From Octopus vulgaris (Eukaryota), in NCBI GenBank assembly GCA_951406725.2, contig OX597837.1:19592001-19656000 (forward strand): a stretch of DNA of 64,000 bases, given 5' to 3'. Shown piece by piece: positions 3,280-32,067 of this stretch. The first letter of the stretch is position 1. Each line of letters opens with the position of its first letter. The notes beneath the pieces were generated by a model. That model saw nothing but the letters and a program-made list of their open reading frames with translations. It did not search any database and was not told the DNA's origin. Made by a program: the position numbers and the translations under genes.

Positions 3280-3720
3280 ATGAGTACAGGACACCAAAGG
3301 GACGTCGAACACAAAGAGAAACGAAAACATAGACACAAACCAAAGGAACGGGACATTTTTTTAAAAACAACAAAAAATGGAGTACAGGACAATTAACACA
3401 ACGAAAAAACCCCTTCTTCAGTCGCTAAGGTTTCATCTACCTACGTTTCGAAGGATAAAAGCGAGACGTATCTCCGACAAGAAACTTTCCTTCCTGCGAA
3501 AAGCAAATCAATTAAAATTCTGAGATCTTTTCGCAGAGGGGTAAAAAATGGTAAAATAAATGGTAAAAAAACAGGACAGTAACGACAGTACGAAAATATA
3601 AACAGTAAAAAAATAAACAGTAAAAAAATATAAACAGTAAAAAAAATATAACAGTAAAAGACAGGACAGGGAAAAACAAGATAAGAAGGGCTGTTGACGC
3701 CGAACGAAAAAAGTATTGCA
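3280..3720 (-). mobile_element. PLE-terminal-like repeat, homologous to 59290-59660
   Basis: Shares a hairpin (ctgcgaaaag...cttttcgcag here, ttccgcaaa...tttgcggaa there) and the tcGAAA...CTGANGAaggg arrangement. Flanked by TA microsatellite. Confidence 0.5.
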
Positions 3721-28535: not shown

Positions 28536-28673
28536 TAACAACATTCTTTTATAAGAATAATAAATTTATACTTTACAAGAATATAAAGTAACTCATCAGA
28601 TTAATGTAAAATTACTTTGATTATAACTTACCATAAAAATAAGCATTAATATATAGTGTATGTATAGAAGTAA

Positions 28674-28892
28674 TGTTTATCGCCACAACATTACTGCTGT
28701 TTTTAACCCCAGGAAGAACCTCTTTCAGTTGGTTAACGATGCAATCTGCACCTGGTATATATTGCGAGTAGGGTAGCAAAACCCCACCATCTTCTAGTGG
28801 ACGACGGGATCACTAGACCAAACTGTTTCGGGCTATTTGTGTCCATTGGCAGTGGTGAGCTAGAAATAGCAGGAATTCATTCCAGCTCGCAG
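28674..28892 (-). repeat. PLE-terminal-like repeat, inverted copy of 29383-29624, containing a decayed HHR (28810-28858)
   Basis: tttttaaccccaggaaga...ctagaaatagcaggaat...ccagctcgca is the reverse complement of 29383-29624. Confidence 0.8.
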
Positions 28893-28945
28893 TTTTTAGA
28901 AAACCAACATCCATGACTGATTGTCGTTTGGTGTTCTATATATTG

Positions 28946-29379
28946 GGATGGTTCTTGGTCTCAAGAATTTGTCTTATGATAAAGGCTGAAGACGCTCGAC
29001 CTTTATTCTCTAGAAAAACGACGAAGCCGTGGTGATCTCATTCTTGTTCACAACATCATAAGCGGAAAGTGTAACCTCTCGAAAGAGCTGTTATTCACTC
29101 CTGCTCCAGAGCGTAGGCTGCGGGGTCACTCCGAAAAGCTCTATCTGCGACGATTTCATCTCAATCGAAAGAGAGGGGCTTTCTCCGTCCGGGTTGCGGA
29201 TCCGTGGAATAAACTGCCGGACGAGATAGTGAAGATGCCGACGACCGCTCGGTTCAAGTCTCTCTTGACCAGAAATGGCCTGAACTCTTTGCATGAACAC
29301 CCCTGTACATAACTCCATGTCCCCCTACATGGCCTTGCTTTTTGCTTTTTGATCCAAAAAATTAACTTAACTTAACTTA
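28946..29379 (+). pseudogene. CR1-clade LINE ORF2 C-terminus and 3' tail
   Basis: GLKNLSY/RLKTLDLYSLEKRRSRGDLI...RLRGHSEKL...FSVRVADPWNKLPDEIV...FKSLL (one frameshift). Ends in (AACTT)3. Confidence 0.9.
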
Positions 29380-29382
29380 TAT

Positions 29383-29624
29383 TGCGAGCTGGAGTTCATT
29401 CCTGCTATCTCTAGCGGCCGGGTGTTCACCACTGACGATGAACACAAATAGCCCGAAACCGTTGGCTTTGGTGATCCTGTCGCCTGCTAGAAGTTGGTAG
29501 GAATTCGCTGCCCTGGTTTCAATATATACTTGGTTAGACTGCATCGATAACAAGCTGGAGGAGGCTCTTCCTGGGGTTAAAAACGGCATTAAGGTCGAAC
29601 TGCCATATCAATGTAGCGATAAAC
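29383..29624 (+). repeat. PLE-terminal-like repeat with hammerhead-like motif (29426-29474)
   Basis: tcacca-CTGACGA-tgaacacaaatagccc-GAAA-ccgttggc-TT-tggtga, with a 6-bp helix I. Confidence 0.75.
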
Positions 29625-29948
29625 TTTACTTCTCGGTATAGTTACTACTTTCATCTCTTATAGTAATTTCCTAACTAGTTACTTTGCTCTTATATATATA
29701 ATACACTCAAAATACCCGGCGTTGCCCGGGTTAAAGAAAATAATGAAATTTTAAAATGCTTCTTAGATCTCTAACATGAACACATAGGCGTAGGAGTGGC
29801 TGTGTGGTAAGTAGCTTGCTTACCAGCCTCATGGTTCCTGGTTCAGTCCCACTGCGTGTCACCTTGTGCAAATGTATTCTACTGTAGCCTCGGGCCGACC
29901 AAAGGCTTGTGAGTGGATTTGGTAAACGGAAACTGAAAGAATCCCGTC

Positions 29949-30002
<54 letters not shown>

Positions 30003-30161
30003 CTAATGTAGGATAACATTTTTTTCGAGAAAATAATTTTATCAATGGCCAACATATCAAAAAATACCTTTAAAGGTTAAATTTATAAATAATTTACAAA
30101 ATAAGGGCAAAAGAAAAATTCTAATGCCAAATATGCCGAAAAAAAAAAGACAAAATTGTCA

Positions 30162-30386
30162 ATAACCATTATAATTTATGCGTCTCGAAACAAACCGATA
30201 GAAATTTCTAAAAAATCCGTTATTACCGTATTGGTCCCAATTTCGGGGTTAATTCATAAGAATTTTCCCCTCTTCAGCGATAAATACGTGAGATATAAAT
30301 GAAATACTTACTCATACCCATGGAAAACGCAAGCACTAAGAAATTTCTATCGGTTTGTTTCGAGACGCATAAATTATAATGGTTAT
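30162..30386. repeat. Perfect 48-bp inverted repeat (30162-30209 / 30339-30386) enclosing a hammerhead
   Basis: ataaccattataatttatgcgtctcgaaacaaaccgatagaaatttct and its exact reverse complement. Confidence 0.95.
30218..30288 (-). ncRNA. Well-formed type I hammerhead ribozyme
   Basis: Minus strand reads ttatcg-CTGAAGA-gggg aa aattc ttat gaatt aa cccc-GAAA-TTGG ga CCAA-TA-cggtaa. All three helices pair. The AUA triplet predicts cleavage between 30229 and 30228. Confidence 0.8.
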
Positions 30387-30659
30387 ATATGTATATGTTT
30401 CTGTGTCTGTGTTTGTCCCCCTCCCACCAACATCGCTTGATAACCGATGCTGGTGTGTTTAAGTTCTCTGTAAATTAGCGGTTAGGCAAAACAGACCGAT
30501 AGAATAAGTACTAGGCTTACAAAGAATAAGTCCTGGGGTCGATTTGCTCGACTAAAGGCGGTGCTCCAGCATGGTGACAGTCAAATGACTGAAACAAGTA
30601 AAAGGGTAAAAGAGTATAGACTATGCAGGTCTTACCTCCTGGTAGCTGAGATACCAACT

Positions 30660-32067
30660 TTATACGTTAATAACCCGGCGTTTCCTAAGGTATTGAAAAA
30701 AATAAAATTTAAGTATGCCTTTTAAATCTATAAGTAAAATGAAACATGGTTTATGCAGTTCTCAATAGTAATTAGCTCAGGTACAAACTATTATTCGATG
30801 TTCCCACTATTAAAATTGTTAAAAACCAGGTAGTCTTGTAATCACCTTCAATTGTCAGTACTTATTTGAAACATGTTGAACCTGAAAATGCATAAATTTG
30901 AGAGGAACCGGCCTTACTCATATTAACATATCTGATGTTTTGAGTGTGTCCTTTAATTGGTGTATAAATGAAAAGATTTTGGAGACTTCTAATTCGCAAA
31001 CACCAAACATGTAAATGCTCATGAGAGAAAGAAAGTGAAGTCCTTGAGAGACTGTCCTTGAGACTTGTTTATTGACATAGAGAAATTCAGTTTCCCTGGG
31101 AACTGGTGGGCGTTTCGGAAGAAGTCGTCCATACTTGTTTCAATTTCTCTGTTTTGTGCGTTTGTGCATCCGTATATAAGCCTTAACCCTAGTCATAAAA
31201 AGTCGGAGAAAAAAAATTGAAAAGTTAAGGAGAGGGTGTATTAAAAGTCTAAAAGTATATATATTTTTTTTTTTTGCATATTCAGAATCTTCGTTGGAGA
31301 CACGGTCGGAATCTGTAGAAAAAAAGCACAAAGGGGTGGCATGCTTGTTCTCACTGTCCTCATACACACATATAATGAAAAAAGTTCAAACGGGGAATTA
31401 TTCCATTCAACGTCATGTTTATTATAGAGATTATGTTACAAATTATGCTTTACACTTCTATATTCCTTATTTTTGCTTCTGGTGCCTTCCTGTTAGAAAC
31501 GTTTACCTGAGAATTTACTTAAAGTGAAAAACATCGTATGCAACAGATAAGTCGTGTTAATAACATATATTTGTGTACCAGACATTTAGCTGTTATTTTT
31601 AATATGAATTTTCTGGTGAGGGCTTCATTTGCCTTCATTGCCTGTTACTCCAGTAGAAATCTACGGATGCACAAACGCACAAATCAGAGAAAATATAATA
31701 AATATGGGTGACTTGTTCCGAAACACCCCCGAGTGGGGAATAGTTCTCAAAAATATACCCCAATTGTTTTTCCCAAATTCCTATATGCTCGAAATCTACA
31801 TAGTGCGAGGTAAATTTTTATTCAATTTCATAAAATAATATCCATTTTTCGGAAAGTTATGATCATCCAAAGTCTGTTGTTATGCCCTGTTGAAAATTGA
31901 TCAATTAAATGAAATCTCCGTATGAAAATTTTTTTCTCACATACACACGGACTCACAGAGGTAAATATCTTACACAAGTAGAAAGTCGGAGAAGAATATG
32001 AAAAATGAAAGTAACATTAGAAATTCTTTTTTTATCTGAAATCGTCACAACTGTAATGATGTACACA

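Follow-up and report, generated by a model that had tools for sequence, protein, structure and literature searches.

A 466-bp hammerhead repeat of Octopus vulgaris with the insertion marks of Penelope-like elements

Our analysis of a 64,000-nt stretch of the Octopus vulgaris genome (contig OX597837.1; hereafter the window) shows that a hammerhead-bearing insert is a fragment of a closed, non-coding 466-bp repeat. We regard this repeat as a new family within an already known class, a non-LTR retrozyme or non-autonomous Penelope-like element (PLE). It is highly probable that the window copy is a 5′-truncated member of the family, which a PLE enzyme likely placed in the TA tract of a SINE, and that its 48-bp inverted arm likely stems from another short cDNA of the same insertion. 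The window locus itself is probably an ordinary, dead insertion. Our search of the literature (repeat databases and supplements aside) gave no such cephalopod element, which may already be catalogued.

The insert spans 30002–30386 (385 bp) in the TA tract. An earlier note had described a 386-bp unit at 30001–30386; the insertion stands, but its extent is the shorter one, and the element is 466 bp long and 5′-truncated here. That a SINE was entered at its (TA)n was correctly recognized, as the SINE halves on both sides match other SINE copies in the window, which have a short TA or TG tract at the insertion place. The (TA)26 tract here is longer than the one in each of four further SINE copies that we compared. 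ARAGORN found no tRNA in the 5′ part of the host SINE. The features of the locus are as follows:

29784–29949, plus strand: 5′ part of the host SINE, which recurs in the window, with an A-box-like motif at 29797–29807 and a B-box-like motif at 29840–29850
29950–30001, no strand: (TA)26 target tract inside the SINE, from the comparison of SINE copies
30002–30340, minus strand: main copy, unit positions 1–335, with its 3′ end at 30002 and 5′-truncated at 30340
30002–30083, minus strand: tail, the ~80 nt between the family's two commonest 3′ ends (position 1 and positions ~83–95)
30019–30025, plus strand: T7 run, a putative Pol III stop for SINE read-through
30162–30209, minus strand: left arm, ordinary internal unit sequence, positions 158–205
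30218–30288, minus strand: type I hammerhead, with core 30277–30271, helix II 30270–30245, GAAA 30244–30241, helix III 30241–30230 and predicted cut 30229/30228
30339–30386, plus strand: inverted 5′-truncated second copy, positions 205 to 158, with a 2-nt overlap at the join to the main copy
30387–30618, plus strand: 3′ part of the host SINE, which recurs in the window

Unit positions are numbered on a natural copy (L004:1501–1966), to which the main copy is 97% identical. The two arms are exactly as first reported: 48 nt each, 100% complementary and spaced by 129 nt. The left arm is not terminal, lying 160 bp inside the insert. The 3′ end of the inverted arm, at position 158, recurs at loci L089, L127 and L164.

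The minus-strand hammerhead is the sole descriptor match on either strand of the 64 kb. It has a helix I of 6 bp, a 2×2 loop and 3 bp; the core CUGAAGA; a helix II of 4 bp, a 2×2 loop and 5 bp; GAAA; a helix III of 4 bp closed by a GGAC loop; and an AUA site with the predicted cut between 30229 and 30228. The motif has all the elements of type I (CUGANGA, GAAA and NUH with three helices). The description of an intact-looking hammerhead holds for the core, helices I and II and the AUA site, but the 5-bp helix III proposed earlier is reduced to 4 bp, because only 2 nt would remain in the loop after a fifth pair. No Rfam hammerhead model matched the motif at E ≤ 10, local scans included, which we read as a limit of the models and not of the motif. 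Across the whole window, Rfam gave 432 rows, and the 150 listed were all microsatellite-driven miRNA noise.

Intact cores are found in 51 of the 61 sampled. Over 91 loci, core position 7 varies (A 57, G 20, C 13, U 3), and the remaining core positions (C3–A9) are at least 94% invariant; core columns were free in our search patterns, whereas GAAA and the cut site were partly fixed by them. Helix II reads GGGG/CCCC in 38 of 65 motifs and GGAG/CUCU in 10. When 53 of these motifs, representing 48 distinct copies, were aligned for covariation, 95.9% of helix cells were paired, compared with 23–48% in slid controls. None of 500 shuffles reached the observed pairing, a test inflated by the kinship of the copies and by helix III columns that the search patterns partly fixed. 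Double changes occur in 15 cells, 12 of them at a single helix II pair (G-C 31, A-U 12), so that the covariation of the helices rests mainly on this one pair and probably reflects one or a few events.

Judged from sequence, the pattern of core and helix II across subfamilies points to selection on cleavage in master copies, and self-cleavage of the window hammerhead is a plausible prediction. In the predicted best fold, a competing helix covers the cut site. Relative to the ensemble, the hammerhead fold lies at +2.3 kcal/mol alone, +3.8 in the hairpin loop of the copy and +5.4 without the extra arm, values that leave out tertiary contacts. The inverted repeat makes no contact with the ribozyme in the window copy. 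Folded as a circle, the 466-nt monomer has z = −6.8 against 40 shuffles.

Searching the genome with the insert gave 2849 first-look candidates, of which 40 were scored. Among these best-scored matches, 38 of 40 stop at or near insert position 339, because the family runs on to position 466 and then restarts at 1; this continuation was seen at 30 loci. The ribozyme region matched an exact pattern 281 times and a pattern with helix II free 529 times, which puts the family at several hundred copies or more. Same-strand ribozyme pairs lie 467, 471 and 476 bp apart among the genome matches, and one two-ribozyme locus (L090) has a U4 change in its second core. Tandem arrays stay short, none of those at the loci displayed exceeding about 1.6 units, and the window copy is itself a monomer fragment. 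Parts of the unit occur in 20 of 24 listed sequencing runs under four organism labels; no RNA run containing it was among the runs listed. Neither junction of the window insert was bridged by any listed contig piece in the four runs whose contigs cover the unit.

The unit has a GC content of 32% and no ORF, and hence not the RT plus GIY-YIG ORF of an autonomous PLE. It does have the sequence features of a non-LTR retrozyme, a few-hundred-bp non-coding repeat with one type I hammerhead per unit. It also contains a TATA-like motif at position 466, an initiator-like motif at 434 and a donor-like GTAAGT at 306. In an exact-pattern search for spliced copies, from the donor-like site at 306 to an acceptor-like site at ~204, none of the 6 matches was a spliced copy. 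The reference copy also has a perfect B-box-like motif at position ~414, outside the part present in the window. No A box was seen with it in the unit, so a Pol III promoter there would be hypothetical.

Two samples of loci document how the copies were inserted. The best-hit sample comprises 30 insertions and is biased to full 3′ ends, the positional sample comprises 38 after duplicate removal and is biased to ribozyme-bearing copies, and three loci are common to both. An inverted second copy is present in 13 of 30 and 22 of 38 insertions, respectively, with both outer ends being 3′ ends, and the 466-to-1 tandem junction in 9 of 30 and 12 of 38. The 3′ ends are discrete: among 60 in the positional sample, 25 fall at positions 1–6, 23 at 67–98, 3 at 146–175 and 9 elsewhere. 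A TA-rich sequence flanks 35 of 43 3′ ends in the best-hit sample and 41 of 60 in the positional one. The 5′ ends are variable, and partial tandems are present.

Inverted second copies mostly lack the ~80-nt tail. In their commonest form (22 of 35), an end at 1–6 is paired with an end at 67–98, which leaves a one-sided tail of ~80 nt. The 33 head-to-head junctions listed are all different, with short overlaps or fillers. Target-site duplications are unreadable in TA tracts. The family thus shows the PLE marks of 5′ truncation, partial tandems and an inverted 5′-truncated copy. Discrete RT start sites also bound an optional 3′ tail, which is longer than published.

For PLEs themselves, the same three marks have been described along with an optional tail and a bias to microsatellites (PMC8557442, PMC3846280). 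In work with purified PLE protein, both strands were cut and extended; the RT starts at two sites inside the RNA, the tail is the distance between them, and uncut RNA is the main template (PMC11167929). The 466-bp insertions match the published description point by point, sharing 5′ truncation, partial tandems, a head-to-head copy, an optional tail, fixed 3′ ends, a TA-tract bias and a hammerhead upstream of the RT start sites. The differences from the same sources are that the unit has no ORF, three start sites instead of two and a tail of ~80 nt instead of 30–40.

We propose that a GIY-YIG endonuclease would cut both strands of the TA tract and that each 3′ end would prime reverse transcription at one of three internal RNA sites, at 1, ~83–95 or ~150–166. 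At the window locus, one cDNA would run from position 1 to 335 and the other from 158 to 205, and their unfinished ends would be joined head to head with the 2-nt overlap. The ribozyme likely works in master copies, where monomers would be cut from tandem transcripts. The window copy, which lacks positions 336–466 with the TATA- and initiator-like motifs, is likely inert. Several points speak against this model. Head-to-head repeats could also arise by self-priming on antisense RNA or DNA templates (PMC3846280), and palindrome-centred junctions do occur, at L220 and L222; no autonomous partner was found among the loci examined; the ~80-nt tail exceeds the published 30–40 bp; and the short arrays are unlike the long ones of retrozymes.

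The template in this model would likely be RNA that was multimeric and uncut, or circular after re-ligation, since the copies span the cut site. Most sampled copies continue through it, in samples chosen to contain the site. We also looked for an excess of 5′ ends at the cut site, which was rejected: 15 pattern matches end there compared with 29 at a control 12 nt upstream, and on reading, true ends make up 11 of the 15 cut-site matches (10 loci) and 11 of the 15 control loci fetched. Rare variants are shared within a locus at 0.41 and 0.48 per 100 nt and between loci at 0.049, an 8- to 10-fold difference, although gene conversion could be an alternative source of variants common to both arms. 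Uncut tandem RNA and a ligated circle would both fit the copies. At one locus (L123/L124, G000:C1:175405628–175405667), both arms end at the predicted cut site with an 8-nt filler; this anecdotal case may record a cleaved template.

The inverted repeat could be seen in two other ways. That it is a functional part of an inherited 385-bp fold-back element, MITE-like or a producer of hairpin RNA, gains something from locus L002, whose boundaries are nearly equal to those of the window copy (335|207, outer end 149), and from nine loci with an arm end at 205–208, beside a palindrome and a T run. However, both arm ends and the ribozyme-region variants differ between L002 and the window, the partner ends of the nine loci are all different, and a T7 run precedes the first arm. 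Searched with a tolerance of 1 mismatch, the window junction 25-mer has a single match in the genome, and with all 33 listed junctions differing, the earlier proposal of the repeat as a feature of the element is not sustained. Fixed terminal inverted repeats, as in MITEs or fold-backs, are absent, and we find this reading scarcely credible.

Somewhat less improbable, but still very unlikely, is that the arm is younger than the insertion and comes from template switching during replication or from repair at a 12-bp palindrome near position 200. The palindrome does lie at the inner end and the arms are perfectly identical; the outer arm ends, on the other hand, are the same few sites as the 3′ ends of uninverted copies and adjoin TA tracts, and such arms are present in about half of insertions. 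The perfection of the arms, correctly noted, had been taken to indicate a recent event. Zero mismatches are weak evidence of recency, because 24 of 77 other segments carry the window 48-mer unchanged and inverted arms have on average 5.1 differences per 100 nt, from which the arithmetical chance of 0 differences in 48 is ~0.08. Compared with the family majority, the window copy has 5 differing positions.

A further alternative concerns the unit itself, which could be the pseudo-LTR (pLTR) of an autonomous PLE that we did not find, the copies being heavily truncated insertions of that PLE. Its layout is alike (TATA-like 466, initiator-like 434, GTAAGT 306, ribozyme, tail). Solo copies of pLTR-type ribozymes are common in animals, according to the part of the source considered (PMC4209133), which also gives a minimal hammerhead form for most animal pLTRs, as opposed to the canonical helix sizes here. 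We compared the unit with 40 GIY-YIG loci (30 of at least 148 places, a minority, plus 10 longer regions) and found no match to the elements' own sequence; the matches in these loci are inserted copies of the 466-bp family or of a sister family. Against the unit, the 3′ ends of 29 scored loci gave scores in the shuffle range, with 5 slightly above the shuffle maximum. In displayed copies that reach ~466, what follows is position 1, an inverted copy or host flank, and never a shared ORF. We hold the pLTR reading to be unlikely, if less so than the two preceding ones.

Enzymes of the required type are plentiful. RT plus GIY-YIG elements are abundant in the genome; their ends lie at TA tracts, they have an optional 38-nt tail, and in many of them a 781-codon frame is open. 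At L062:1745–4087, L063, L064, L066 and L067, an abundant young PLE has an upstream ORF and the 781-codon RT plus GIY-YIG frame, and at L063 a unit copy lies directly behind the end of an RT plus GIY-YIG element. Because none of the elements examined has the unit sequence, we infer the driver PLE rather than identify it. The 3′ end of the 781-codon PLE carries a hammerhead-like motif with UUGAUAA for CUGANGA, possibly a U3–A8 swap.

The sister family is a closed non-coding unit of ~476–485 bp that carries a type I hammerhead of its own (core CUGAUGA) and gave 2048–2419 first-look candidates. Its loci are L191–L215 (for example L202 and L203) and L102–L121, with a fragment at L065:857–1082. It targets TA, has inverted copies with variable centres and a GTAAGT donor-like motif upstream of the ribozyme, and its tail motif is ~75% like that of the 466-bp family. 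A fixed fold-back in this family was rejected, since hairpin centres vary between copies. As a path to an autonomous partner it also failed: upstream tracing reached another closed non-coding unit.

Taken at sequence level, the 466-bp unit would behave as a non-autonomous PLE and also qualify as a non-LTR retrozyme. Both classes suggested earlier, a PLE inverted-terminus product or a retrozyme-like unit, are upheld, whereas the tiny fold-back unit gives way to a 466-bp element without an inherited inverted repeat. In the portions considered of the descriptions of animal non-LTR retrozymes (PMC7229834; Li, Clavereau & Pollet 2026, bioRxiv 10.64898/2026.07.22.740005), these are likewise non-coding and low in GC, with copies arranged head to tail and one type I hammerhead of canonical size in each unit; they also have a strongly folded monomer (PMC7229834) and a proposed dependence on PLEs (Li 2026; PMC4209133). 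They differ in unit size (150–450 bp published, 466 bp here), in forming long arrays instead of mostly truncated monomers and partial tandems, and in a helix III of 1–2 bp instead of 4 bp; discrete 3′ ends, a tail and inverted copies are not described in those portions. MRC1 and other non-autonomous elements of Chlamys are also non-coding PLE dependants with head-to-tail insertions. These share 3′ sequence with their autonomous family and mostly lack a hammerhead (PMC8557442), whereas the 466-bp unit has one and its partner sequence was not found among the loci examined.

So far, the retrozyme–PLE link has come from ribozymes in common, from distribution and from phylogeny. In this family, young copies in their hundreds bear the insertion marks of PLEs and map three start sites, in a genome with intact-looking PLE ORFs. 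The family is of modest value: with those ORFs, it offers a substrate and an enzyme for use in the in vitro assay already published for PLEs. We tentatively entertain a bolder idea, that hammerhead retrozymes of ~470–480 nt (at least two families with a common tail motif) have their RNA circularised and that a PLE-type enzyme primes twice on one circle at discrete sites. If true, it would account for the cut-site read-through, the partial tandems, the variant-sharing overlapping arms and the long tail, and it would also count as direct structural evidence of canonical-hammerhead retrozymes riding on PLE machinery.

T runs terminate Pol III transcripts, and the T7 run at 30019–30025 lies 137 nt ahead of the first arm. 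Read-through from the SINE into a long hairpin RNA, as envisaged in the earlier note, is therefore unsupported. Minus-strand transcription would need an outside promoter, because positions 336–466 are missing.

Other repeats were noted along the way. At L071, about 1110–1360 nt past an ORF end at 3437, a short TA-flanked fold-back insert has a one-sided extension and is unrelated in sequence by eye. Within the window, a decayed long inverted repeat at 28666–29633 (arms 28666–28891 and 29383–29633, 78–91%) surrounds a LINE-like fragment and contains a degenerate minimal-hammerhead-like motif near 29432; an old insertion of PLE type is its probable origin. On either side of the host SINE, at 29714–29774 and 30673–30733, lie the copies of a 61-nt direct repeat (74%), perhaps an older element that the SINE entered.
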